DNA from: Minisyncoccota bacterium
GTDB lineage: Bacteria > Patescibacteriota > Minisyncoccia > Phycocordibacterales > CAJQIN01
DNA length: 64,000 nucleotides
Direction: 5' to 3'
Assembly (NCBI GenBank): GCA_905478465.1
Contig: CAJQIN010000002.1
Coordinates: 24,312-88,311 of the forward strand
Part shown: piece by piece, positions 1,875 to 14,604 of the stretch
Position numbering within the stretch: the stretch's first letter is position 1
Layout of the letters: each line of letters starts with the position of its first letter
Notes under the pieces: generated by a model
The model's database searches: none
What the model saw: the letters and a program-made list of their open reading frames with translations, nothing else
Told to the model about the DNA's origin: nothing
Translations under genes and position numbers: made by a program

Positions 1875-2315
1875 ATGTTAATTGCAAACAAAAAAGCACG
1901 CTTAAACTACGAGGTCCTTGAGACATTTGAAGCAGGTATCAAACTGCTTGGTTTTGAGGTAAAAGCCCTCAAACAGAAAAGTGGTTCACTGGAAGGCTCT
2001 CATGTGACCATACGTGGAGCCGAGGCATTTGTAATCAACATGCACATCCCCCCATATCAACCAACCAACACCCCTAAAGGATATGACCCATATCGCAACA
2101 GAAAACTACTACTCACAAAAAAAGAACTTCTTGTTTTAACAGGAAAAGAGTCCCAAAAAGGATTGACAATGGTACCACTTTCAGTGTATAATAAAGGAAA
2201 GAATATCAAACTTGAGTTTGCAATTGTTCGCGGAAAGAAAAAATTCGACAAACGAGAAGACCTGAAGAAACAAACTGCCAAGCGTGATATCGAACGATCT
2301 TTGAAATACGAATAG
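1875..2315 (+). CDS. smpB: SsrA-binding protein SmpB
   Basis: 146 aa, typical SmpB length and sequence character; lies immediately upstream of a tmRNA gene. Confidence 0.88.
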   Translation: MLIANKKARLNYEVLETFEAGIKLLGFEVKALKQKSGSLEGSHVTIRGAEAFVINMHIPPYQPTNTPKGYDPYRNRKLLLTKKELLVLTGKESQKGLTMVPLSVYNKGKNIKLEFAIVRGKKKFDKREDLKKQTAKRDIERSLKYE

Positions 2316-2366
2316 CAAAGCCGACCATTCATAAAGAGTAGAGGAATTCATATTCCCCTTTTCTTT

Positions 2367-2763
2367 GGGGATGATCGGCCTAGACGAGTAAGCTATCCAT
2401 CATATGTGCAAAGTAGAGCTCTGGGAACTCTTTAAAAGCTCAGAACACTCTAAGTGCAAACTTAGTACAAAAAACAAAGTCAGTAGCTTCACCTTTCTTT
2501 AAGGCGAACGACTTTGCATTCGCTTACGCAATAGCCTAAGCGACGCGCACGCATTGAGGAGTTCGAGTAAATGTATTGCGTGTTATTACACGAACTAGAC
2601 CTGCTAGTGTTTTGATTTCAGGTCGACATTAATTAAAACTCGACGTTTGAGAATTTTGTGTATTTTATATCTCAAATGTTTAAAACCTTAAAACACACTA
2701 CACTTTGTAGAATCATATTTTGAACTTATTCACACGGCGGTTCGATTCCGCCCATCTCCACAT
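2367..2763 (+). ncRNA. ssrA: tmRNA (transfer-messenger RNA)
   Basis: 5' GGGGAUGAUCGG...GACGAG; 3' T-arm GGCGGTTCGATTCCGCC then acceptor strand CATCTCC pairing with 5' GGGGATG including a G3.U pair (Ala identity), then A-CA. Internal tag frame GCG AAC GAC TTT GCA TTC GCT TAC GCA ATA GCC TAA gives ANDFAFAYAIA* (2504..2539). Confidence 0.8.
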
Positions 2764-4324
2764 CTAGGGATTTTGTAGTGACAAAATCTTCAAATAACCT
2801 TACAGCACTTGGTATTTCAGCGGTTCCATAACCCTCATCAAGTGAGTATGGTAATTTCTCATCAAAAATAAAGAAGAATAGCTTTTGCCTTTCTTCAACT
2901 TCTAATTTAGCCCATATTTTATAAGGGCTTTTCAGCATACCAGTCGCTTTATCTAAAGCGGTTCCATAAGGAATATCAAAGTCCACGACCTCAAGTATAT
3001 TTGGGTCTTCCTGCTCCCTCTGACTCACTAAGTCCTCAATCTCTTTTTCGTATACTTGAACAAGTGATTCTGACTTGGTTTCAATAACTCTCCGAGAAAG
3101 CAATTTTATTTTTTCATCTATCTCTTGACTCGCCTGTGAGTTTTTTAGCTCCCTTTCTTTCAACAATGAAACTTCTATATCCCAAGATTTATCAAATATC
3201 TTTTTGATAAGAGGGCCCGCTCGAGGATTTAGCTTGTGTCTTTTTAGTAGTTGATTAAAACGTAATTCCGCGTCCTCAACCGAAAGTGATTTACTGTATC
3301 GCTCACAATCTTTGTTTTGACACTTGTAATACGCATAGCGCCTTGTCCTACCTTTAGACCAAGCGCCAGTGAGATGTCCGCGACATTCTGGGCAAACTAG
3401 AAGGCCTCTCATAGGAAAATCTGCCCTTACATCCATTCTGACTTTCCGACCTGTTGCTTCGTTAGTTAATCGTTTTTGATTGAGTTCAAAAATCTCTTTC
3501 GAGATTAAACCTTCGTGTTTTCCTTCTCTTATACTGACCTCCCATGCGGGGTACTCAATGAAACCGGCATAGAATGGGTCTCGTAATATCACCGTAAACT
3601 TATCAATGTATCTTTCTGGAGCTTGGGCTTTCCAGAAACCCTTATCAACCAAGAAACGACAAGCGTCTACTTTTCTCAGAAAGACACTCTTGGCGTATCC
3701 TTCCAATGCTTCTTGCAAGTATGTAGCTTCCGGCTCCTTACGCATTGATATGGTCCCGTGTATAGGACTACGAGTCATTTTGTACCCTTTTTTAGAGCCA
3801 AAAGCCCAATAACCTAGCAATAGTCGAGCACGCTGTTTCTGTATCACCTGACGCTTATTTTGCTTTCTTTCTAGTTCGGCTTGGCCGGCCATGATTAACT
3901 CAGCAAAACGCCCTTCATCGCTATCATCAAAGTTGTAGTTGAGACAACGTAAAGCGACGTCTCTCATTTCAAAAGCTGTCCTTAGCTTGAGATGAAACTC
4001 AACATCTCTCGCAAACCGTTTTAAGTCATCAAAAACCACAACAAACTTTTTGTGAGGACGAGTGTCGATGTATTCAAGCATGGCCCTCATTGCGGGACGA
4101 TTCATAAAATCACCACCTCCAGTAACGCTGTCTCTAAATGTTTCAGCATGTGGCACCTTAATGTTTTGTAAGTCAGTCAAGCACCTCCCTTCTTGCGACT
4201 TCAGACCTGTCCCTTCTGTTTCCTGACGCTTACTTGATACTCGGGCATAGACAATGCCCTCGCGTCCATCATAAGAAACTTCTTTGCGTTCGCCGTATAA
4301 ATTAATTTTTCTTGCTTTGCTCAT
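2726..4324 (-). CDS. large serine recombinase (integrase) 1
   Basis: N-terminal resolvase-type catalytic domain 'IVYARVSSKRQ', recombinase domain, zinc-ribbon 'CPECRGH...YYKC'. The last ~11 codons (..VEMGGIEPPCE) are encoded by the tmRNA 3' end. Confidence 0.85.
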   Translation of the reverse strand: MSKARKINLYGERKEVSYDGREGIVYARVSSKRQETEGTGLKSQEGRCLTDLQNIKVPHAETFRDSVTGGGDFMNRPAMRAMLEYIDTRPHKKFVVVFDDLKRFARDVEFHLKLRTAFEMRDVALRCLNYNFDDSDEGRFAELIMAGQAELERKQNKRQVIQKQRARLLLGYWAFGSKKGYKMTRSPIHGTISMRKEPEATYLQEALEGYAKSVFLRKVDACRFLVDKGFWKAQAPERYIDKFTVILRDPFYAGFIEYPAWEVSIREGKHEGLISKEIFELNQKRLTNEATGRKVRMDVRADFPMRGLLVCPECRGHLTGAWSKGRTRRYAYYKCQNKDCERYSKSLSVEDAELRFNQLLKRHKLNPRAGPLIKKIFDKSWDIEVSLLKERELKNSQASQEIDEKIKLLSRRVIETKSESLVQVYEKEIEDLVSQREQEDPNILEVVDFDIPYGTALDKATGMLKSPYKIWAKLEVEERQKLFFFIFDEKLPYSLDEGYGTAEIPSAVRLFEDFVTTKSLDVEMGGIEPPCE

Positions 4325-4505
4325 GTTTTTTTATCTCGTTAACATATCTATCGAGTTCTGCCCTAGCTACATTTCGACAAAAAGCAGTCAGATAGTTTAT
4401 GCGTTGAATAATTTTGTCCTCGGAAGAACCAAAATCATCCACAAGAGACCGGTACTCATCGACCGAGATAACAGCGGTTGTGTCGTTTTCTAACTTCGAG
4501 GACAT
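4302..4505 (-). CDS. small hypothetical protein overlapping integrase-1 start (candidate excision/directionality factor)
   Basis: 67-aa ORF whose 3' end overlaps the int1 start by 23 nt (translational coupling). Confidence 0.35.
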   Translation of the reverse strand: MSSKLENDTTAVISVDEYRSLVDDFGSSEDKIIQRINYLTAFCRNVARAELDRYVNEIKKHEQSKKN

Positions 4506-4645
4506 GCCTCGATTGTAGAAACATCACCCCGTACCAAATCTAGGTCCGATAGAAATAGGAAATGTTTTAAATACCCTTGATTTGCTACATATTTGAAACA
4601 CTATCCACAAGTACGAATACGTACTTGCTCATAGGGTATACCCAG

Positions 4646-5305
4646 TCACTTTTTCAGCTTTACATTGGTCACTCGATAACCTGATTTGTTGTCACTTTCC
4701 AAAAGAGTTTCCCTGGGTAAGCCAAACTCGCGCTCGACCACATCTCTCAAGTTGTTTGCCACCTTTCTTATTCCCACGCCAGTTGTTTCAAACTCTTCTG
4801 CAAGTTTTTGTGTTTTAACAAATCGTTTCTTCTTTGCGAGGTAATTCAGAACCCCGTACGGCCGCTTGTCAGTTTCTAAATTAAACTTCTTGTCTAATCT
4901 GGCTTCAGGATAGAAGCTACCGTCTTTTTCAAGCACATAGCGTTGAACATTCTCCAGCTCTTTAATCTTTTCCTCTAACAAACTTTCTTGCTCTTGTAGT
5001 TGCTGGTAATCCCTAACTCTGACCCAAATACTTTTTCTCATCACATCACCGTCAATGATAGTTGTGACACCTGAAGGAACTATTGCACTTTTGTATTCCA
5101 GATTCCCATCACTTTCTGCAACAAGTAAGTCGAGTGCCTCTTCAGCTAAATATGGGTCAAGGAGCAGGTCATTATATTCTCTGATTCTGTCTATATCACA
5201 AGAAAAAGATTCTCTTGTTGCTCCTTCCTTGAGTCGTTTTGTAATAAACTCAATAAGAAGTTTCTCGCGATATATTGTCTTATCTCCATATCTCTCACTC
5301 TTCAT
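4646..5305 (-). CDS. hypothetical protein, possible C-terminal winged-HTH
   Basis: 219-aa ORF; the C-terminal segment KKKRFVKTQKLAEEFETTGVGIRKVANNL resembles a DNA-binding helix-turn-helix. Confidence 0.45.
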   Translation of the reverse strand: MKSERYGDKTIYREKLLIEFITKRLKEGATRESFSCDIDRIREYNDLLLDPYLAEEALDLLVAESDGNLEYKSAIVPSGVTTIIDGDVMRKSIWVRVRDYQQLQEQESLLEEKIKELENVQRYVLEKDGSFYPEARLDKKFNLETDKRPYGVLNYLAKKKRFVKTQKLAEEFETTGVGIRKVANNLRDVVEREFGLPRETLLESDNKSGYRVTNVKLKK

Positions 5306-5331
5306 TGCTTTATTTTAGCAACAAACAACAC

Positions 5332-5688
5332 TTACTGACATAACGAATACTCTTTCATCCCTTTAGTGAACCCTTGTCCGACCATATCTTCTTCACTGTA
5401 TCCATAGGCCCAAACAGTTACGGAATCCTGATTCGACTTATTAGCATTAATAATTTGTTCTAGCGTGTAATCGACCTTTTCTTGCTCAGCCACATCCGGG
5501 ACCAGAACATGAATGCCTACACGCCTACAGTTGAGATACGATAGGTCGCTTTGTTCCACAATCCGATATTCTAGTAGCGGTTTCTCGTTTACCCCTCTTG
5601 AAATTATCACCATAACAACCAGAATGGCGACTAGAGCGATAAACCCTCCTGCCGAGTACTTAGAAATTCTAATTATTTTATCTATCAT
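5332..5688 (-). CDS. small membrane-anchored protein
   Basis: 118 aa with an N-terminal hydrophobic anchor (FIALVAILVVMVIIS); preceded by repeat element A. Confidence 0.45.
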   Translation of the reverse strand: MIDKIIRISKYSAGGFIALVAILVVMVIISRGVNEKPLLEYRIVEQSDLSYLNCRRVGIHVLVPDVAEQEKVDYTLEQIINANKSNQDSVTVWAYGYSEEDMVGQGFTKGMKEYSLCQ

Positions 5689-5723
5689 GGTTTTCCTTTA
5701 AAACTCATAAACCCTGACAGCAG

Positions 5724-5879
5724 ATACAAAAAGCCCGCCACCAGGAGGGCCGAAGCCCCTATAGGAGTTTCCCCCTATAACGCGTTCAACGCCCTGAATG
5801 ACGGGTTTTTTATGTTGAACGCGATTTCTGACCATACCTTATGAAAACCATAAGGGTTAGGCCATCTCCTTATTTAATT
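5724..5879 (+). repeat. structured intergenic repeat, copy A (second copy at 11413..11562)
   Basis: About 70% identity to 11413..11562 over ~155 bp. Conserved core CCCTRAATGACGGGTTTTTTATGTT is flanked by a 10-12 bp inverted repeat whose sequence differs between copies but stays complementary (A: CGCGTTCAAC/GTTGAACGCG 5781..5823; B: AACGCTACAAAC/GTTTGTAGCGTT 11468..11515). Confidence 0.6.
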
Positions 5880-5998
5880 GTCATTGAATTATACCACCTT
5901 ATACGCTCCTGACCCTACCCCCCCTAAAATTAACATTTCAAAATATGATACGGCTCAAAATAAAGCTTTTTTTGTAAACAAAATTACAATTTCTAATT

Positions 5999-6508
5999 TT
6001 AGAGATTTAAATCTAAATCTTCAAATAAGTCGATGGCAAATCTTTCTCCTGAAACATGAAGGACATTGTAATCGTTACAAACATTTGGTATTTTGGCTTT
6101 TTTATTATTCTTACCAGAACTAACAGAACGCTCAGCAGTTACCACTACTGTCTTATGATTTAGAGAATGAGCTATTACATAAGGGTCCGCTATGGTCTTA
6201 ACTCTATTCTCATCTTCAAGAGTAGGATGAGCACGAATAATTGATATGGCTTGGTTATAATCATCCGCGCTTAATTCCTTAACTACCTGGGTCTGTCTTT
6301 CTTTAATCCACCCCGCCATGTCATCATCCTTATTCATAACCTCTTCATACACCTCACGAACAACATACGCTCTGCCAAGATTAAACAACTCTTCTATCTC
6401 CAGCCATAGGGGTGAAAATCTCTTAATAGGATAATTATGACTTAAAACAATCAAAGCAGAAGCATCGAAGTTATATATTTTATTATTCTCTGCCAGGTTC
6501 ATTGTCAT
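5999..6508 (-). CDS. PIN-like nuclease domain protein (DUF4411-like)
   Basis: 169 aa, N-terminal 'IYNFDASALI' acidic PIN-type motif. It lies immediately downstream of an ImmA/IrrE peptidase gene, a pairing that recurs in published gene-neighbourhood surveys. Confidence 0.55.
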   Translation of the reverse strand: MTMNLAENNKIYNFDASALIVLSHNYPIKRFSPLWLEIEELFNLGRAYVVREVYEEVMNKDDDMAGWIKERQTQVVKELSADDYNQAISIIRAHPTLEDENRVKTIADPYVIAHSLNHKTVVVTAERSVSSGKNNKKAKIPNVCNDYNVLHVSGERFAIDLFEDLDLNL

Positions 6509-6513
6509 AACTT

Positions 6514-7734
6514 TTAATTTGCCTGGCTAAACTGGTTTTCAATTTTTTGTATGTGCTTTTGTTTTATATCAAAAAATCTGACCATATCGAAATAAGATAT
6601 TTTCTTACTTTCTTGAGCAGATAAAACCCTTTGAGTGAGCTTTCTTCCACTTGCGTTTAAAGCCATAACATAAGGTTGAGGACCTCCACTTTGACCCTTT
6701 TCTTTTGCCTTTTGCTTTAATCTTTTCTTGTACTCTTGAAAAGATAGCTTTAACTCTCTGTCTTTATTTTCAAAAAAATTCTTAGTAACATTGCCACTGT
6801 CATAAAACCTTCTAAGAATAACTCTTGCACTTACTCTATATTTTGTTGCAAGACGTTCTAAGAGTTCTCCATCTTCTTTGTCAGACAAAAACCTTTTTGC
6901 CATATTTTCATTAAGAAGGTTATTCAAAGGAACAAGAAAACTACCAGAAAAATGATTGGCGAAAGTTTCTATAATTAGATGCTGACGTCTTAGGGAAGTA
7001 TTATCTCTTTTAATTTTAGCTAAATCATTCTCACTCAATAATAAGTGAGCTAGTTCATGAAATAAACTAAAAGTTCTGCCAGCAGGACTGTCTTTGGTAT
7101 TTAAAACAATAACTGGTACTTGGTCCTCATCCCCCCTTAAACAAAATGCTCTTATCCCGCCCTCTTCCTCATCAAGAGGCATAGACATTTGAAATACAAG
7201 CAAGCCCAAATCCTCTAAGGCATTAATCCAATTTTTTAACGCATCTCCTTTATCTTCCCAGGAAAGTTGCTCTTCTATACTGATGTTTATGAGATTTCGT
7301 AGCTTTTTGGCTTGCTCATTTACATCTTCTTCAAAATGCAAAATAAACTTTTTTATCTCTCTATTTATTGGTTCTTCCAAAATTTCACTAATCTCTTCAA
7401 AGTATTCTCTATTACGCCTGGCTTTCCTGACAGCTAGTCTGACCTCGTTACTAAGCTCTTCTTGCTTAACACTATCAAGAGTTCTGAAGTCAACAGGAAA
7501 AGCTTTCGTTACGGGAACGTCTGGCAAGAAAAAAACTCCCATACTGCGCTTATAGCGATTCGCAAGGTCTTTGAGTTTAGACACAGATATTTCTCCGCCA
7601 TTTTCCCATTCAACTAATTGCTCTTCAGAAACTTTTTGTTTTTTTGCTACTTCAGATAAGTCATATCCGATTGTTTCTCTGGCCCATTTAAGTATGCCTG
7701 GTGTAGTTTTAATTGTAGGTGTCCGGCTTGCCAT
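6514..7734 (-). CDS. XRE-family HTH + ImmA/IrrE (COG2856-like) zinc metallopeptidase
   Basis: N-terminal HTH (LKWARETIGYDLSEVAKKQKVSEEQLVEWENGGEISVSKLKDLANRY) and HExxH motif 'FHELAHLL'. The likely start MASRTP is at 7734; the ORF track extends to 7848. Confidence 0.65.
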   Translation of the reverse strand: MASRTPTIKTTPGILKWARETIGYDLSEVAKKQKVSEEQLVEWENGGEISVSKLKDLANRYKRSMGVFFLPDVPVTKAFPVDFRTLDSVKQEELSNEVRLAVRKARRNREYFEEISEILEEPINREIKKFILHFEEDVNEQAKKLRNLINISIEEQLSWEDKGDALKNWINALEDLGLLVFQMSMPLDEEEGGIRAFCLRGDEDQVPVIVLNTKDSPAGRTFSLFHELAHLLLSENDLAKIKRDNTSLRRQHLIIETFANHFSGSFLVPLNNLLNENMAKRFLSDKEDGELLERLATKYRVSARVILRRFYDSGNVTKNFFENKDRELKLSFQEYKKRLKQKAKEKGQSGGPQPYVMALNASGRKLTQRVLSAQESKKISYFDMVRFFDIKQKHIQKIENQFSQAN

Positions 7735-7822
7735 AGTAGTTACATTGTATAACAAATACACACCAATCTTAAGTACGATATCCTGCCGAGTAAAAAATGA
7801 TAGTATTCTAGTAGAAACTATT

Positions 7823-7937
7823 GCCCAAGTGGTGGAATTGGTATACACATCCGTTTACCAAAGCGTTTAATTATTTGAACGTTTTGTAAACGGATAGCGC
7901 AAGCTGTGCGGGTTCGAGTCCCGCTTTGGGCACAAAC
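7823..7937 (+). other. tRNA-like RNA element (115 nt) with an extended 10-bp anticodon-like arm
   Basis: 5' GCCCAAG pairs with 3' TTTGGGC (7-bp acceptor with a G.U), followed by A-CA. U8, a GG-containing D-loop and a canonical T-arm GCGGG-TTCGAGT-CCCGC are present. The central helix ATCCGTTTAC/GTAAACGGAT has a 27-nt loop. A hairpin terminator follows at 7950..7977. Confidence 0.35.
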
Positions 7938-7949
7938 AAAAACACCCCT

Positions 7950-7977
7950 TCAACTTCAAGAGTGTTTTTGTAGGGAG
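7950..7977 (+). terminator. hairpin flanked by A/T runs (AAAAACAC..GTGTTTTT)
   Basis: 8-bp stem AAAAACAC/GTGTTTTT with a 12-nt loop, directly 3' of the tRNA-like element. Confidence 0.4.
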
Positions 7978-8081
7978 GTGTTACCTTTCAGTCGCTGTTT
8001 CAGATTCGCAATACAATACCATTGGTCGAACAACCAGTTCTCCTTCCGAGCAAGCTCTACTTAAGCCAGTAACTTTTCCAT

Positions 8082-8396
8082 TCACCTCTTGTTGCGATTC
8101 ACATTGTCACGCTTACTGTGGTCTGGATTGTCACGCACATACCTTCGTCCATTCACAGAGATAACGTGGGCACCTTGATGCTTGCCCTGCAGTACCTCCT
8201 GTACTGCTTTGACTCGAGGAACGTTTGAACGACTTCCAATCTTGTAGCTCTCATTCCTGTCGTTGGGACCATCATTGTTTCCAATTATTTTAGTCATGAG
8301 TATTTTATTATTGTCTTCTAACGAGGGGCGTACGGACTCGACCACTTCCGCACTCACCTTTTTATATTTTACCTCGTTACTTGTTGAATGTATCAC
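8082..8396 (-). CDS. hypothetical protein co-transcribed downstream of integrase 2
   Basis: 104-aa ORF whose start lies 21 nt from the int2 stop. Confidence 0.35.
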   Translation of the reverse strand: MIHSTSNEVKYKKVSAEVVESVRPSLEDNNKILMTKIIGNNDGPNDRNESYKIGSRSNVPRVKAVQEVLQGKHQGAHVISVNGRRYVRDNPDHSKRDNVNRNKR

Positions 8397-8419
8397 TTGT
8401 GGCCATTCACATTAAAAAA

Positions 8420-10075
8420 TCACGTTGTAGAAAGGGCTTTTTGCAGACGTGGGCAGTTCTCGTAAAAATGCCAGAAGTCAACGAGGTAGCTTTTCAGGCG
8501 GTTGAACGAATTGTTCGACAAGTCCACATCACAGGAACCAGACACTGATATTGCCTCAAATACGTTGTATATTGGCGATAGTTCAGCGGTTCCAAAGCCT
8601 GTTTTTAAATCATAAGCAGGACCCCTAGAGAAGACTAGCTTATAGGCTAGTCTTTTCTTTGCCAAATCATCAGAAAGCCAGAGTTTTTCAGGGTTTTTTA
8701 TTAGTTTCATCGTAGACGCCAAAGCGGTTCCAAAGGTTTTAGGATAAGTGTTATCTGACTTAACTTGTTTCTTTAGTTGTTTTATTTCTTTTTCTATATC
8801 TCCTATCCTCTGTTCATACGTCCCTATTACGGACTCATTCTTTGCATTAACTATACGGTCCAAAAAAGTTTTCTTCTCTTCCTCTAATTTTTCTATTTCT
8901 TTTTTACTCCCTTCTCCTTTTTTGAATAGCTTAACCATTCTCTTCTCCCACACATCCTTAATTATTTTTTCTGCAAGATTAACAATCTGTTCTTTTGGAT
9001 GATTCTCAGTGAGTAAATCCAAAAAATCACTGTGTATGTTTTCTATGGGGATACTCTTTCCATAATATGGCGACTCCTTTTTATTGAACCTATAATATGG
9101 GTGCTTTCCGTTCCTACCTGTAGTCCAGCTAGCAGTTAAAGGATGTCTAGTCACAGAATCCACGATGAAACCCCTAAGCGGAAAATCTTTTGTCATTCCT
9201 TGTTTTTGAGTAGCTGGGTACAAAGGTTTGTTTTCTAACTTTCTTTCAATTTTATCTAAAATATCTTCTGAAATTATTCCCTTGTGCTTCCCTTCTCTTC
9301 TTGCAACTTCCCAGTCTGGATACTCAATAAACCCAGCGTACAAAGAAGCCCTCTTTAATAACCGAGAAGCGGTATCGGCATATACTTTTTTGTCTTTGTA
9401 GAAACCATTCTCATCCAAAAACTTCCTAAGCTCTTCTTTGTTTGAGAATCTTCCAGAAGCAAAACCCTCAAGACCTTCCCTAATCACTGAAGCAATAGGT
9501 TCATTAGGATGAAGGACCCAAGTACCGTCGCTAAGGTTTTTTCTAACAAAACCAGGGACCTTTGAACTAAAACCCCAATAACCTCTTTCAAGTCTTGCTT
9601 TCGTCTTTTGCACAACCTGTCTTTTATTCTGGTTTCTCTCAAGCTCAGCTCCAGCAGCTAAAATTGTCTCTACGTAACGACCCTCTGGAGTATCGTCGAA
9701 GTTAAAGTTTAAACACTCTGGTGTTATATCTCTTGATTTAAAAGCACTCCTAAGTTTGAGATGAAATTCAACATCTCTTGCAAATCTCTTCAAGTCATCA
9801 AATACAACAATATATTTATTATGCGGTTTACTATCAACATAATTAATTAAAGCTGACATAGCGGGCCTTTTCATAAAATCACCTCCTCCAGTAAAACTGT
9901 CTAGAAAAACTTCTTCTACTTCATAACCTTTACTTCTGGCGTATTCCTTACAGCGTTGCGCTTGACTATCCAATCCATTCCCTTCTTTAGTCTGCCTATC
10001 GGAAGACACACGAGCATATATAATTGCTTTAAGTTTAATTTCCATATTCTTTATTATAACCTTCATAATGCTCAT
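8420..10075 (-). CDS. large serine recombinase (integrase) 2
   Basis: Paralogue of int1 ('IIYARVSSDRQ', 'FDDLKRFARDVEFHLKLR' shared). The probable start MEIKL at 10045 overlaps the stop of a 49-aa upstream ORF (ATGGAAATTAA). Confidence 0.85.
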   Translation of the reverse strand: MSIMKVIIKNMEIKLKAIIYARVSSDRQTKEGNGLDSQAQRCKEYARSKGYEVEEVFLDSFTGGGDFMKRPAMSALINYVDSKPHNKYIVVFDDLKRFARDVEFHLKLRSAFKSRDITPECLNFNFDDTPEGRYVETILAAGAELERNQNKRQVVQKTKARLERGYWGFSSKVPGFVRKNLSDGTWVLHPNEPIASVIREGLEGFASGRFSNKEELRKFLDENGFYKDKKVYADTASRLLKRASLYAGFIEYPDWEVARREGKHKGIISEDILDKIERKLENKPLYPATQKQGMTKDFPLRGFIVDSVTRHPLTASWTTGRNGKHPYYRFNKKESPYYGKSIPIENIHSDFLDLLTENHPKEQIVNLAEKIIKDVWEKRMVKLFKKGEGSKKEIEKLEEEKKTFLDRIVNAKNESVIGTYEQRIGDIEKEIKQLKKQVKSDNTYPKTFGTALASTMKLIKNPEKLWLSDDLAKKRLAYKLVFSRGPAYDLKTGFGTAELSPIYNVFEAISVSGSCDVDLSNNSFNRLKSYLVDFWHFYENCPRLQKALSTT

Positions 10076-10184
10076 CTAAAACAACCTCAGCTAATGAATA
10101 TAGAGCATCTCTAAACATCTCCACCTCTTCATCAGAAATAGCCACATCAGCAAGATATTCTTTACATTCCTTAATAGGTATCAT
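10035..10184 (-). CDS. 49-aa acidic small protein overlapping integrase-2 start
   Basis: MIPIKECKEYLADVAISDEEVEMFRDALYSLAEVVLDEHYEGYNKEYGN; its stop overlaps the int2 ATG. Not in the ORF track because it is shorter than 60 aa. Confidence 0.3.
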   Translation of the reverse strand: MIPIKECKEYLADVAISDEEVEMFRDALYSLAEVVLDEHYEGYNKEYGN

Positions 10185-10220
10185 GTTTAGTAAAAACTCT
10201 TCATGTTAGTGATTTTTACC

Positions 10221-10442
10221 TCATTTTTTACGCCCCTCAAGAGACTTCGTAAGAGACATAAGATGCTTAATTAGTTTTTTTCTGTCTCCTTTATCATAGT
10301 CGTCACGATTAACTAATTTAGAGAAATTTTCTGTAATAGAATTGTAAGAAAAATTTCTACCATTAACAGCTGCTGCAAATGCCATATAGCTACTAATTGG
10401 TTCCTTGTAATACTTGTTAAACCTAGCCTTGATACTTCTCAT
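10221..10442 (-). CDS. hypothetical small basic protein
   Basis: 73-aa ORF upstream of the 49-aa ORF/int2 operon. Confidence 0.35.
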   Translation of the reverse strand: MRSIKARFNKYYKEPISSYMAFAAAVNGRNFSYNSITENFSKLVNRDDYDKGDRKKLIKHLMSLTKSLEGRKK

Positions 10443-10662
10443 GTTTGTTTTTAATTAAAAAATAAAAAAAGACGACAAATAGCAATAAAGCTATGTGTCG
10501 TCTTTTGTTAGATTTAACACAAGATGTCGTCTGACATCTAAATAAATATTCAGTTGTTACTTATTAATATACCACCTATACGTCTGTAGAGCAAGTTTTT
10601 TCCAGAAAACAAACATCTTCTAACTTTTCATATCCTACATTTTCCAACATTTGACAGAAGTC

Positions 10663-11385
10663 TTATAGTTTAAATTTTTTATCATACTTTTTTGATATCC
10701 AAGACTCCCAATAGTCAATAAACTTAAATGGGTCTTTAGCATACTCCAAACTAGGGTCTGCCTGTATTTGCTCATCTATTTTTTCAAATCTAGGGTACAT
10801 AAAACTAGAGTTATATAGTTTGTATTCCGACAACAACTCGTCTGTTACATCTTTTAAGTTATTAGAAAAGTTAAATGAGCCAGAACTTTTCCACTGGTCA
10901 TATCTACGCCCCCACTCTGTGTTTATTCTATCTTCTAAATACACAGGCCTTTCGTCTGCGTAACCTGTCTTACCACTACCCTCTGACGAATCTAAGGAAG
11001 CCTTTTTTAATTCCCTAGAGCAAGAAGTTACTTCATCATTAAGATTGTTAATTTTAATTTTGTAAGTAGTCGCCAAAGTGCCCAGCTCTAATTTCAATTT
11101 TTTATTTTCCTCTTCTAAAAAACTCATCCGTTCAGCCACGACGGGGTCATTTATTATTTTTTCAATAAATACTTCTTTTACCACGACCTCTTTTGTGTCC
11201 TTATTCACAGAATCACCAACTTCCTTTTGAGCTAGGTTAGGTTGAGAATTATTTTCTAAATTTTCTGGTATCACAAGTGTGTCATTTTTTGAGTTGAACC
11301 AACTTGAGGGATTCCACCAACTAGCATACGTGACCAATGGAATGATTATGACCACCACTATAAGTATTTTGGATATATTTTTCAT
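10663..11385 (-). CDS. secreted coiled-coil protein
   Basis: N-terminal signal-like segment MKNISKILIVVVIIIPLVTYASWW; coiled-coil region (EENKKLKLELGTL). Preceded by repeat copy B. Confidence 0.5.
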   Translation of the reverse strand: MKNISKILIVVVIIIPLVTYASWWNPSSWFNSKNDTLVIPENLENNSQPNLAQKEVGDSVNKDTKEVVVKEVFIEKIINDPVVAERMSFLEEENKKLKLELGTLATTYKIKINNLNDEVTSCSRELKKASLDSSEGSGKTGYADERPVYLEDRINTEWGRRYDQWKSSGSFNFSNNLKDVTDELLSEYKLYNSSFMYPRFEKIDEQIQADPSLEYAKDPFKFIDYWESWISKKYDKKFKL

Positions 11386-11412
11386 ATTTGTTTGTAGCGT
11401 TTAAATAATAAG

Positions 11413-11562
11413 ATACACAAAACCCGCCACTAGAAGCCCCTAAAGGCCTACACGAGTTTCCAAGTGCAACGCTACAAACGTCCCTAATGACGGGTTTTTT
11501 ATGTTTGTAGCGTTTTTTCAGACCATGCCTTATTTTATAGGTTTAGGTCACCATATTTAATT
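11413..11562 (+). repeat. structured intergenic repeat, copy B
   Basis: See copy A. The right stem arm GTTTGTAGCGTT also occurs a third time at 11392..11403. Confidence 0.6.
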
Positions 11563-11611
11563 ATTTAATTACAAGCTAAATAATACATCACTTACAGGTA
11601 TTTTACACACC

Positions 11612-12307
11612 TTATTTTTCAATCTCTAACAAGCAATCGCTGGTCTGCTTACCCGTATCTGGGTTCACACATTTGTATGCAATAACTAACTCATCTATAG
11701 AGGAGTTTCTGTCAAGTGAGTTAACGTACGTAGTGAAAATAGTTTTGTTTGAAACATTTAAAAGTGCCACCCAGTCTGCAACCATAATTGGGTTACTTCT
11801 ATTCTTTGTCTCCCTGTAGACAATTTCACCTAGTGGAAAAAGTACCTCAGTATAATCTCCTGTATTATGATTAACGACAGCACCTTCTGACACCAAATGT
11901 CCACCAAACACACCAGGGCTCAAATAGAAATCCTCCCAATAATCAAGCGGCTTACCACTCTTTTGAACTCTAATATATAAGTACCCACAAGCAACTTTAG
12001 AGTTAGAGCCATACCGATTTACGACAACAGTTCTATCTTCGATAAAACCGTTATAAGCATTCACAAAAGTTCTATCTCCCAAAAGCTCAATAGAACTTTT
12101 ATCTTTTAAAGACTTGAAACTATCAAAATCTCTCGGACAACTAACGGTAGGATTTTCTATCTGCTTAATAACCTGATTAGCAACGTCCTTAAACTGGTCT
12201 TTACTAGGATTTACTTTCTCCGCAAGCCAAACAGAAAACACCACAAACAAAATAGACACCGCTATTAACAAAAATGCTTTAACAATACTTTTAAAATTAT
12301 TTTTCAT
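11612..12307 (-). CDS. membrane-anchored extracytoplasmic protein
   Basis: ORF 11612..12352; the likely start MKNNFKS at 12307 is followed by a TM helix. Confidence 0.5.
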   Translation of the reverse strand: MKNNFKSIVKAFLLIAVSILFVVFSVWLAEKVNPSKDQFKDVANQVIKQIENPTVSCPRDFDSFKSLKDKSSIELLGDRTFVNAYNGFIEDRTVVVNRYGSNSKVACGYLYIRVQKSGKPLDYWEDFYLSPGVFGGHLVSEGAVVNHNTGDYTEVLFPLGEIVYRETKNRSNPIMVADWVALLNVSNKTIFTTYVNSLDRNSSIDELVIAYKCVNPDTGKQTSDCLLEIEK

Positions 12308-12311
12308 TAGA

Positions 12312-12614
12312 TTAATTATTATTCCGTTCCTCAACAAGAATTTTAAACTCATATTTAATAAAGAATATGTATAAAACAGTTATTAGTATGCTAACAAAAA
12401 CTGGCAAGAGTAATGCATGAATTTTGTCTGGTATTTCTTCAAGCCAAAACGTTTTTACTGCCACCTTAATATCAGGCGCAAAGAAATTTGTTACCCCGAC
12501 AAACGTTACCATTAAAGACGCCAACAATGCTCCTGCCACAAAATTAAAAATCGTGGCAATAGTAACTAATATACAAGTAACTACTAAGATATTCCCTAAT
12601 TTAATAAAAAACAT
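12312..12614 (-). CDS. small integral membrane protein
   Basis: 100 aa, three hydrophobic segments. Confidence 0.4.
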   Translation of the reverse strand: MFFIKLGNILVVTCILVTIATIFNFVAGALLASLMVTFVGVTNFFAPDIKVAVKTFWLEEIPDKIHALLLPVFVSILITVLYIFFIKYEFKILVEERNNN

Positions 12615-12784
12615 ATATTCTATAAATCAAATCTAACCTAATATACACTTAAAAACAAGGTCCTTAATTAATTACCACCAGGTGCTTACATGTGGTCAGA
12701 AATATGATTTTCAAGATATTCACCAAAATAAAATTAGTTATAACTCTTTTTTATTTCAAAATATTTTAAAACAGCATTTAAACC

Positions 12785-13249
12785 CTAAAGATTATTCTGA
12801 TAGTACTCATCTAGATATTTTTGTAACTTAAAATACCAAAGAGTAAAGCCTACTACGGTCAGTAAAAATCCTACCCACAACAGACTTTGTGCAAGAAACC
12901 TACCTTCCGTAACTTTAGAAAGTTTGGTTTTTGTAATTATAAAGTTTTCTTGAACTTCCTTAATTCTGTTTTCATATTTAATAACCCCACCCTTAAATAA
13001 AACTATATACTCAAGTTTTACTTGCTCACTTGAAACAAGAACTTCATCAAGAACCCCGTTAAGCTGTTCCCTGGTACTATTTACCTCCTGTGTTAATGTT
13101 TCAATTTCTAACTCATTAAAATATTCCTGTTGATAAATATCAAGCAAACTATTCGATGTTTGATAAAAGAGGATAGAACCTGTAACAAAAACAAGTAATC
13201 CCGCTATGGCGATAAATTTATAAAGATTGTCAGTAGGAATTTTAAGCAT
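12785..13249 (-). CDS. membrane protein
   Basis: 154 aa with N- and C-terminal TM segments. Confidence 0.45.
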   Translation of the reverse strand: MLKIPTDNLYKFIAIAGLLVFVTGSILFYQTSNSLLDIYQQEYFNELEIETLTQEVNSTREQLNGVLDEVLVSSEQVKLEYIVLFKGGVIKYENRIKEVQENFIITKTKLSKVTEGRFLAQSLLWVGFLLTVVGFTLWYFKLQKYLDEYYQNNL

Positions 13250-13598
13250 AAATTTAGTAAGTATCTAATAACTTATTTATATTTTACCTTAAATAACGTT
13301 CTATTACTCCTGCGTGTGTCTACTACCCAAATCATCTACCAATTTAAACCATTTCTAAACCTATGGACATTTCTCCAATTTCTAATACCCAATCTTTTAT
13401 TAGGTTCCAATTTTTCGACAAGATGTCCACCAAAAATACTAAACTTCCAAAAAATAACAGACAAAATACCTGTTGTTTTTACATTTTATAAAAACACCAC
13501 TTACCTCTCTTTGTCTAAACCCAGACTTGACAACTAACCCATAAGAGACGAATATACGAAACAAACCCTAGAACCTTCACATAGAAAAGGAGATACCA

Positions 13599-14159
13599 TT
13601 GAGATTAATTAACGGCATACCAAAAGGAGCTCTTTTGGAATTAGCAGTCCTTGGAAAGGCGTGTTCTATACACAACGAAGAACCATTATTCACAGGTGAC
13701 TACCGAAAATTTGAAGATTGTATACGGATAGCTAAAAAAGTCGCCCGGCAAGATGGCTGGAATGCTCACAAACCAGATGAAAAACTTCTTATCAGTCATC
13801 TTCTATCGGAAATAAGACAGATACTCAGGAATATAAACAAAAAAAATATTACAGTGTCTGTATTTTTAGCAACAAACACTCCATTAGATTTATTACACTC
13901 TGTAGATGGATTCTTCACGGCAAAATTCAGTAGCAAAACTCAGAAGAGTACGCACGAGGCTAGATTTTATTTTGATCTGAGTCTAAATCCAGAAAAAAAA
14001 CACAAAAAAGGAGTAGATATCTTTCGAGAAGATGATTTTTACAAACCTAAATTAAAAAATACTGCCAAACGAGTAACAAGAGTTCTTCAAAAACAACTAC
14101 AATCCATCCCACTTGTTACAAAAAACAAGAAGAAAATAAAAGGAGCTTCATATGTCTAA
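13599..14159 (+). CDS. hypothetical protein
   Basis: 186 aa; TTG start with AAGGAGA 7 nt upstream; candidate promoter TTGACA-N17-GAATAT upstream. Confidence 0.5.
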   Translation: MRLINGIPKGALLELAVLGKACSIHNEEPLFTGDYRKFEDCIRIAKKVARQDGWNAHKPDEKLLISHLLSEIRQILRNINKKNITVSVFLATNTPLDLLHSVDGFFTAKFSSKTQKSTHEARFYFDLSLNPEKKHKKGVDIFREDDFYKPKLKNTAKRVTRVLQKQLQSIPLVTKNKKKIKGASYV

Positions 14160-14289
14160 TTATAAACCTGGACAAAAACCTATAATCACCTGTCCTGAGC
14201 GTAAGTACAAGTACTACCAAGGTACCCCTGTTCATGATAAAAATTGTCCTCGATTAAAAAAACCTAACGAGACAAAAACAAAAAACTGA
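14152..14289 (+). CDS. 45-aa small Cys-containing protein, translationally coupled
   Basis: MSNYKPGQKPIITCPERKYKYYQGTPVHDKNCPRLKKPNETKTKN; AAGGAG 6 nt upstream; ATG overlaps the preceding stop (ATGTCTAA). Confidence 0.3.
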   Translation: MSNYKPGQKPIITCPERKYKYYQGTPVHDKNCPRLKKPNETKTKN

Positions 14290-14328
14290 GTTCGAAATAA
14301 AATTATCTCAACACAAAACAATTTAAAA

Positions 14329-14368
14329 CTCCCTTGGACCAAAACGCGTGGTCCTTGGGAGTTATTTT
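14329..14368 (+). terminator. rho-independent terminator
   Basis: CTCCCTTGGACC...GGTCCTTGGGAG imperfect stem followed by TTATTTTT. Confidence 0.5.
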
Positions 14369-14382
14369 TAATCATATAAAAC

Positions 14383-14410
14383 TTGACTTTTTATTTCTTT
14401 AGTGTATACT
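14383..14410 (+). promoter_or_regulatory. near-consensus sigma70-type promoter TTGACT-N16-TATACT
   Basis: -35 TTGACT 14383..14388, -10 TATACT 14405..14410 with GTG just upstream. Confidence 0.55.
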
Positions 14411-14457
14411 TCTTACTAGAGTTTAATTGTTTAAACATTTTCATTGGAGGAAAATTC

Positions 14458-14580
14458 ATGTTTTCAGTAACCTTTCAAAGTGGCTTTTACTCGGCCCATG
14501 GTCCGTCTGGGGAAATCCTCGGACAGGGCAGTACGCCCACAGAAGCCTGCCAACAGGCTGAAATTACGTTGTTGAGATAA
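14458..14580 (+). CDS. 40-aa small peptide MFSVTFQSGFYSAHGPSGEILGQGSTPTEACQQAEITLLR
   Basis: GGAGG 7 nt upstream of ATG 14458, strong promoter upstream, strong terminator downstream. The ORF track start at 14383 is inside the promoter. Confidence 0.5.
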   Translation: MFSVTFQSGFYSAHGPSGEILGQGSTPTEACQQAEITLLR

Positions 14581-14604
14581 AAATCTCCAACAACACAAAA
14601 ACCC

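Follow-up and report, generated by a model that had tools for sequence, protein, structure and literature searches.

A 64,000-nt stretch of contig CAJQIN010000002.1 from a Minisyncoccota bacterium (the window) very probably carries two small elements stacked at the 3′ end of ssrA, the gene for transfer-messenger RNA (tmRNA). Each element (E1 and E2) encodes a large serine recombinase (LSR; int1 and int2 respectively), and each would have its attachment site attP inside the open reading frame (ORF) of that integrase. The RNA gene is intact; it is the integrase whose native C-terminus ends up elsewhere.

Three core sites delimit two elements

The core TCCAC (GTGGA on the integrase strand) occurs three times in series, each time without mismatch. 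Junction 1 (2757..2761, attL of E1) has the tmRNA gene on its left and the body of int1 on its right. Junction 2 (8523..8527) is an attP-like hybrid site with a tail belonging to E1 (tail A) on the left and the body of int2, part of E2, on the right. Junction 3 (13426..13430, attR) is flanked by a second tail (tail B) on the left and by the original ssrA trailer on the right. E1 spans 2762..8527 (5766 bp) and E2 8528..13430 (4903 bp). The original prediction, made from the sequence of the window, had proposed two tandem islands at ssrA with one LSR each, which the three cores bear out; the right end, which it had placed at 14300, moves to 13430.

On the host side, ssrA (2367..2761, forward strand) is complete, its acceptor strand ending in the core. 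It is the only tmRNA that ARAGORN calls in the window, tag peptide included, and it scores 90.7 bits against Rfam RF00023 (model positions 1–374 of 374). smpB (1875..2315, forward strand; the gene record of a matching contig lists Pfam SmpB) lies 5′ of it in the left host flank. int1 (2726..4324, reverse strand) consists of a body (2762..4324) and an end that is antisense tmRNA (2726..2761): its last 11 codons and stop, V-E-M-G-G-I-E-P-P-C-E-stop, are the antisense of the T-arm and acceptor strand, so that the ORF shares the last 36 nt of ssrA and has its stop codon (2726–2728) within that gene. Translation confirms what had been claimed for this end.

The body of int2 (8528..10075, reverse strand) continues in frame into tail A (8420..8527, reverse strand; VDLSNNSFNRLKSYLVDFWHFYENCPRLQKALSTT and a stop), with the stop codon at 8420–8422, within E1. 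Tail A is the native C-terminal tail of int1's clade and matches the type-1 tails of 16 related loci and of three uncut integrase genes (see below). Tail B (13344..13430, reverse strand; VDILSKNWNLIKDWVLEIGEMSIGLEMV and a stop), at the right end of E2, is a detached native tail of int2's clade and matches the type-2 tails at attR of int2-clade loci (for instance VDILSKSWNQIESYIFE in L040). It was missed by tblastn with type-1 tails, was found by translating at each TCCAC and was confirmed with type-2 tails. The tails are offset by one position from their integrases: the codons at the end of int1 come from the tmRNA gene, int2 is completed by tail A and tail B is orphaned, with tail types that agree with the integrase clades. 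Circles of the two elements are predicted to have the junctions ..CCCTAGATGTGGACTTGTCGAAC.. (int1 body and tail A) and ..TCCTGTGATGTGGACATCTTGTCG.. (int2 body and tail B).

The original prediction held that the element supplies or reconstitutes the ssrA 3′ end. On this reading the island would behave like a tDNA island of the tyrosine-integrase type: it would cross over within the tmRNA gene and restore that gene with a 3′ end of its own. The 36-nt overlap would fit such a scheme, as would the few related loci (L009, L071) in which up to 16 nt of acceptor strand are common to attL and attR. However, the window holds no second, displaced tmRNA 3′ end (26-nt query, up to 3 mismatches allowed), identity ends after GTGGA in most attL/attR pairs, and the attR sequence directly after the core codes for a native tail, not for tRNA. 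A tyrosine integrase is also missing, with no Phage_integrase match. We consider this explanation highly improbable. Because the 27 attL/attR pairs known from the family share just GTGGA/TCCAC, at the last acceptor bases, the tmRNA gene is left whole. Judged by these sequences, the tmRNA stays host-encoded and the integrase, not the RNA gene, loses its native C-terminus; the mechanism first proposed is reversed, and the RNA gene lends codons to the integrase.

The sequence to the right of Junction 3 (13431..13485, forward strand; CAAAAATAC...) contains a weak hairpin and a T-run and resembles the trailers of unoccupied tmRNA genes. We take it to be the ssrA trailer from before the insertions, with an empty site that would have read ..TCCACCA. 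The occupied gene reads ..TCCACAT (2757..2764), and comparison with 13426..13433 gives ..TCCACCA for the reconstructed site, with ..TCCACCAAAAATAC as the predicted attB junction and ..CCCATCTCCACCAAAAATAC.. as the predicted empty site. Insertion would have turned the encoded ..ACCA of ssrA into ..ACAT and so removed the genomic CCA; maturation of this tmRNA would therefore depend on a CCA-adding enzyme.

The two integrases are related LSRs

int1 (532 aa) matches Pfam Resolvase (1.1e-17), Recombinase and Zn_ribbon_recom, and the int2 ORF (8420..10075, reverse strand; 551 aa) matches Resolvase at 4.3e-23. The Y-R-V-S motif with the serine nucleophile is present and invariant in an alignment of 25 sequences. 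An AlphaFold2 model of int2 (mean predicted local distance difference test score 76.5) comprises a catalytic domain, a recombinase domain, a zinc ribbon and a long coiled coil, whose helices (362–442) follow the zinc ribbon; the native-type tail (residues 522–550) is modelled as helices with moderate confidence. The top Foldseek matches of this model are full-length integrase–DNA complexes (9y66, 9dxf and Bxb1 9iu2; E 1e-13 to 1e-15), and the model indicates that int2 has the full LSR fold.

A paralogous LSR had been claimed some 4 kb from int1, and int2 is indeed 40% identical to int1 across 507 aa. Aligning the two, as had been suggested, places the point of divergence exactly where int1 enters tmRNA-encoded sequence: the alignment ends at D-V-E-M in int1 and at D-V-D-L in int2.

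A family of elements at tRNA and tmRNA gene ends

A genome scan with int1 gave 72 loci, nearly all from metagenome-assembled genomes of Patescibacteria (candidate phyla radiation, CPR). A database search gave 1180 homologues at E ≤ 1e-10, and the C-termini of the best 120 were read. In 48 of the 72 loci, ARAGORN and Rfam place a convergent RNA gene at the 3′ end of the integrase gene (tmRNA in 28, tRNA-Ala in 17, tRNA-Leu in 3); most of the remaining 24 loci are cut by contig ends. Recurrence of this geometry shows that the overlap between int1 and the tmRNA gene is not coincidental. It also upholds the proposal of a family of RNA-gene-targeting serine-integrase islands in CPR-like genomes, and the search for such integrases at ssrA in other assemblies, which the original prediction had advised, finds them in the 28 tmRNA loci. 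As a control, 120 metagenomic tmRNA genes that keep ..TCCACCA were inspected; none has a family LSR downstream, with at least 1.7 kb available to show one in 64 of them.

Nearly all of the best 120 homologues have a conserved D-V-[DE] followed by an antisense-tRNA peptide (..EMGGIEPP.. or ..DPTGLEPATPSLQMRCSTR). A few (among them P0006, P0069, P0109 and int2 of the window) end instead in a conserved tail, ..LN.LK.YLsrFW.YYqssp.LQkAL. With tblastn, 16 loci showed detached fragments of this type-1 tail that lie upstream of the integrase and share its strand; another 17 loci, from int2's clade, have a tail of a second type (VDI..KSWNQIESYIF..). The detached tails, in 33 loci in total, lie 3.3–9.0 kb upstream of the integrase on its own strand. 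Complete attL/attR pairs could be assigned in 27 loci; nearly all share GTGGA, and the elements that they bound measure 3.3–9.0 kb. Beyond the first nine codons the tails have entropies of 0.88, 0.71 and 1.31 bits at codon positions 1, 2 and 3, a pattern that points to selection on the native tails at the protein level. Such coding-type conservation implies a frequent return to the circular form.

One contig (L083; Logan SRR9159698_6614, 6534 bp) contains an uncut integrase (P0006) with its native tail and has a 25-nt terminal overlap. It appears to be circular and is a candidate for the free form of a related element. It also encodes a MerR-like protein and has one large ORF that wraps around the ends; the LOOT RNA described below was not detected on it.

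A second tandem case, L009, repeats the arrangement of the window, its second integrase being completed by the tail of the proximal element. One could instead regard E1 and E2 as a single composite element with two cooperating serine recombinases, as in SCCmec with CcrA and CcrB. CcrB is the best NCBIfam match of both int1 and int2, at 65 bits against a cutoff of 900, and the ssrA islands of Dehalococcoides encode two serine recombinases (PMC3146451). However, int1 and int2 are paralogous LSRs of full length, each element has a small ORF, a LOOT RNA and a tail of its integrase's clade, a core without mismatch stands between E1 and E2, and among the 72 loci only L009 has a second full integrase (the second match in L064 is its own interrupted gene). 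A composite is accordingly very unlikely.

Some members and their surroundings depart from the common pattern. A distant clade (L050, L051, L055; ∼ 35% identity) crosses the tRNA or tmRNA end in another frame (..CLNGG.. or ..CCGG..), which suggests a shifted junction, possibly with CCA retained. Members in Bacteroidota and a sponge-associated lineage (L039, L042, L043, L057, L067) end in non-tRNA tails, with no tRNA beside them, and may be uncut genes or have other targets. A tRNA-Ile(TAT) gene lies ∼ 3–6 kb past ssrA on the host side in 13 loci (L003, L012, L016, L017, L020, L021, L023, L025, L026, L028, L029, L045, L072), probably as conserved host synteny. ARAGORN missed 10 of the 28 Rfam-detected tmRNA genes (L006, L009, L012, L014, L020, L025, L026, L038, L070, L072), and pipelines that rely on it therefore under-call tmRNA-linked islands in CPR loci.

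The attachment sites resemble those of LSRs

When the junctions are aligned, one end of the element has the integrase body to the left of GTGGA and antisense tRNA to its right, and the other end has the host trailer on the left and the native tail on the right. The 27 complete pairs therefore place attP inside the integrase ORF, ∼ 30–35 codons before its stop, and the crossover at the last acceptor bases and discriminator of the RNA gene. Variant junctions (CTGGA/ATGGA in L071, GTGGG/GTGGA in L013) narrow the shared bases to TGG/CCA.

Motifs were compared in one arm of each site. Counted from the first G of the core, the consensus of the B arms (28 sequences) has T.GAAC at positions 17–22 and that of the P arms (34 sequences) has it at 22–27; among these P arms, 27 have a GAAC that begins at position 24. 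In LSR attB sites the zinc-ribbon-domain (ZD) motif is 5 bp nearer the centre than in attP (Rutherford et al., PMC3783163), and the sites of this family match this 5-bp shift. The B-arm T.GAAC is the tRNA T-loop, read antisense, and the conserved LN/WN residues of the tails are the T.GAAC DNA motif read as protein.

A model of integration

We propose that attP, within the integrase ORF, recombines with an attB made up of the last ∼ 20 bp of the tRNA or tmRNA gene and its trailer. T.GAAC, which in the B arm is T-loop sequence, would serve both arms as the ZD motif and would lie 5 bp farther from the centre in the P arm. Strands would be exchanged in the core TCCAC, at acceptor positions ∼ 70–72, the discriminator base and the next base. 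The RNA gene would be kept whole and its trailer replaced, here together with the encoded CCA. At the same time the integrase body would be joined to antisense-tRNA codons, and the conserved native tail would be left next to the host trailer, at the other end of the element. If a further element then inserted at this site, each tail would move by one position, which is the arrangement seen in the window. The elements presumably move as circles by LSR recombination, E1 and E2 may still be mobile, and loss of the tail would be expected to alter integrase activity.

Several observations weigh against this model or limit it. Three attempts to find an empty allele gave none: 20 of 20 contigs with an identical SmpB (exact lookup) carry int1; a lookup with a right-flank protein gave three contigs, and both contexts shown carry E2; and a metagenome scan for tmRNA ends with CCA gave 120 loci, the best with 73% tmRNA identity and no close relative among them. 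An excised circle of E1 or E2 was likewise not found, and the circularity of L083 is read from its 25-nt overlap alone. Two loci with detached tails (L008 and L064) have integrase 3′ ends in non-tRNA sequence; these may be secondary sites or rearrangements. The crossover would fall within the 5-bp core, and the sequences narrow it to TGG/CCA, not to one dinucleotide. Finally, the model does not explain how a tandem array forms, as LSRs are not known to recombine attP with attL or attR and normally refuse to do so.

It is conceivable that the islands are fixed remnants, immobile since int1 lost its tail and int2 came to carry a foreign one. The arrangement is identical in every contig of the strain, neither a circle nor an empty site was seen, and neither integrase has its own tail. 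Against this, the integrase ORFs, the small ORFs, the LOOT copies and the tails are all intact and the three cores perfect. The coding-type conservation of detached tails speaks for frequent returns to the circle, and loss of the native tail on integration is the normal state throughout the family. We regard fixation as possible but unlikely, and favour stacked elements with attP inside the integrase ORF.

LOOT RNA, small ORFs and cargo

Each element of the window contains one copy of the LOOT RNA, at 5744..5863 in E1 (reverse strand; Rfam RF03000, 80.2 bits) and at 11433..11549 in E2 (reverse strand; 61.7 bits). Both exceed the gathering score of 46.4 and span model positions 1–121 of 121; the Rfam matches themselves run over 5746..5863 and 11435..11549. 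Our own covariance model scores them at 103 and 91 bits and gives 29 matches in the window and the 72 loci (952 kb), of which two are the window copies and the other 27 are spread over 25 loci. Nearly all copies lie 0.4–2.4 kb upstream of the integrase start, in either orientation (10 on the integrase strand and 17 opposite in the related loci); those of L009 and L015 are exceptions that lie beyond the delimited element, and the one in L009 adjoins the second integrase. Downstream of both window copies stand a conserved GTGGCGGG(C)TTTT stretch and, after it, an ORF. LOOT RNA is a near-constant part of these Patescibacteria serine-integrase elements. It is not universal: the three contigs with an uncut integrase gave no LOOT match. 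To our knowledge LOOT RNA was known only from unclassified metagenomes, and a literature search found no description of its function or genomic context. The element in L006 also contains a SAM (S-adenosylmethionine) riboswitch (6802..6898; S-box, 55.6 bits), ∼ 500 nt from its LOOT RNA.

A small ORF overlaps the start of each integrase, as the original prediction had noted. The one at int1 (4302..4505, reverse strand; no Pfam match) has the motif EYR..L.YL.AFCRN and homologues directly upstream of the integrase in at least 10 other elements; its counterpart at int2 (10035..10184, reverse strand) is known from gene call and translation, and its likeness was judged by eye. Clustering of the ORFs of 18 delimited elements gave three recurrent genes besides cargo: the integrase, this small upstream ORF (EYR..L.YLEAFCRNI in relatives, with 4302..4505 and probably 10035..10184 as its window members) and a MerR-like protein of ∼ 270 aa. 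The small ORF is a candidate for a directionality factor or regulator. The MerR-like (MerR_1) cluster has members in 8 elements and none clearly in the window. By position, its slot is taken in E1 by a 219-aa ORF (4646..5305, reverse strand) with a faint C-terminal helix-turn-helix (HTH) signal.

Directly downstream of the LOOT RNA, E1 has a 118-aa ORF with an N-terminal hydrophobic segment (5332..5688, reverse strand). Its further cargo includes a DUF4411 protein (5999..6508, reverse strand; Pfam) and an HTH and peptidase-M78 protein (6514..7848, reverse strand) that resembles RmrA (PADLOC, 1.4e-20) and the spr1629-family antitoxin of NCBIfam. The pair had been described as defence or toxin–antitoxin like, and its families are consistent with a toxin–antitoxin or defence-like pair. 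In comparison with RosmerTA, the RmrA models match the M78 protein and the adjoining DUF4411 protein matches no PADLOC model. A DUF3892 ORF (8082..8396, reverse strand; Pfam match at threshold) lies beside tail A. E2 encodes proteins of 73 aa and 240 aa (10221..11385, reverse strand), the latter with an N-terminal segment like a signal or transmembrane sequence, and three more of 246, 100 and 154 aa (11612..13249, reverse strand) with hydrophobic segments. None of these five has a family match, although L008 and L011 have ORFs that fall into one cluster with the 73-aa ORF. The secreted and membrane cargo that had been foreseen is thus present as several proteins without a family. Related elements carry DNA methyltransferases. 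A scan of the window for promoters and terminators stayed at chance level.

E1 also carries a tRNA-like element (7823..7932, forward strand; Rfam tRNA 43 bits, and called by ARAGORN only with introns allowed). It has a class-II (Leu-like) body in which a 28-nt insertion extends the anticodon arm into a hairpin of ∼ 21 bp, is called 'Gly(ACC)' in the intron mode of ARAGORN, has a folding z-score of −7.2, extends into the 5′ end of the M78 ORF as annotated, and was found only in contigs of the same strain. It had been named as the element that follows int2, with the implication of a target. The junction of int2 (8523–8527) is fused to a tail, not to tRNA, tail A completing the int2 3′ end in frame; the tRNA-like element stands ∼ 590 bp away, inside E1, and is ruled out as the target.

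LSRs are common phage integrases, and the islands could be small prophages or phage satellites. The viral database IMG/VR gave no match in a single-protein scan, and a profile scan gave three contigs that encode distant family members (30–36% identity), the rest being generic LSRs; none of the three ends on a tRNA. However, Pfam and PADLOC detected no capsid, tail, terminase, replication, lysis or conjugation genes in the elements, which confirms the absence of phage structural and conjugation genes claimed earlier, the elements measure just 3.3–9 kb, and viral contigs include no close relatives. We see hardly any likelihood of a phage origin.

Relation to known systems

The closest described system is that of the tandem ssrA islands of Dehalococcoides, with a 540-aa CcrB-like serine integrase, DsiB (McMurdie et al. 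2011, PMC3146451). In each of those islands the DsiB gene overlaps attL and its stop codon falls outside the island; the authors proposed that the gene is whole solely in the circular form or when it follows an adjacent island (PMC3146451). E1 and E2 resemble these islands in their tandem position downstream of ssrA, in a CcrB-like LSR on the reverse strand beside attL, in an integrase 3′ end that runs into attL and ssrA with its stop outside the island, in carrying a tRNA-like locus, and in being small mobilizable elements without transfer genes; int2 is an instance of a gene completed by the 3′ fragment of the neighbouring island. The likeness of DsiB to int1 and int2 is drawn from the published description; CcrB is the nearest named relative of all of them, here far below its cutoff.

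There are also clear differences. The shared core is ∼ 5 bp here and a 20-bp direct repeat there. The small recombinase DsiA and the RecF/ParB/Mom module of the Dehalococcoides islands are absent (no Resolvase, ParB or methyltransferase family matches in the other ORFs of 2300..14600); the elements described here have instead a conserved MerR-like gene, small ORF and integrase together with LOOT RNA. Their targets also include tRNA-Ala and tRNA-Leu, their hosts are Patescibacteria, another phylum, and a conserved native tail under coding selection has been identified. The window belongs to the rarely documented Dehalococcoides kind, from which its 5-bp core, LOOT RNA, tRNA targets, missing modules and phylum set it apart.

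A survey with TIGER placed 14 of 297 serine-integrase islands at tRNA or tmRNA genes, described such use of these genes as not reported before and called for experiments to prove it (Mageeney et al. 2020, PMC7192596). These TIGER/Islander cases are likewise serine-integrase elements at tRNA or tmRNA genes, but no attachment-site anatomy or family was described for them. The original prediction had called the geometry unusual for LSRs. As a statement of rarity this agrees with the 14 of 297 (PMC7192596), but the Dehalococcoides islands (PMC3146451) mean that it is not unprecedented. Our literature search found no paper that links Patescibacteria to serine integrases targeting tRNA or tmRNA genes.

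The phage LSRs (A118/LI, Bxb1, phiC31) share domain architecture, fold, a short core and a distal motif that lies 5 bp further out in attP. The family described here differs in having attP inside the integrase coding sequence, so that integration rewrites the C-terminus, in having an RNA gene end as its target instead of a protein gene, and in that its elements are tiny and non-viral.

Islands at tRNA and tmRNA genes are familiar from tyrosine integrases, and integration alters the integrase gene in the Myxococcus phage Mx8 (intP) and in Sulfolobus SSV1. The landing sites, in tRNA or tmRNA 3′ regions, and an integrase gene that spans attP and is changed or split are common to these systems and ours. 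Theirs is an unrelated enzyme family, however, and a duplicated tDNA segment restores the gene. In the elements described here the crossover falls at the last bases of the RNA gene, which therefore has no need to be restored.

Implications

The 1180 homologues and the 48 of 72 loci indicate that targeting of tRNA and tmRNA genes is the rule for a large LSR clade rather than a curiosity. Sequence-level predictions of attB and attP are now available and are directly testable. Since the enzymes land at conserved tRNA-Ala, tRNA-Leu and tmRNA ends and leave the gene intact, they are attractive candidates for genetic tools in Patescibacteria and beyond. The conserved tail and the apparently circular form support the suggestion made in 2011 that the integrase gene is whole just when it is off the chromosome or follows a neighbouring island, and the orphan LOOT RNA motif gains a host group and a genomic context.

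We speculate further that the exchange of C-termini is a built-in state sensor, in which the tail sets whether the enzyme integrates, is silent or excises. Full enzyme with the helical tail would be made just by the circle or by a copy behind a neighbour's tail, LOOT would be the elements' own regulatory RNA, and several hundred or more LSRs would have self-editing genes. We think this rather unlikely as it stands. If true, it would mean self-editing LSRs with near-universal landing sites, the ends of tRNA-Ala and tmRNA genes, in bacteria that lack genetic tools.

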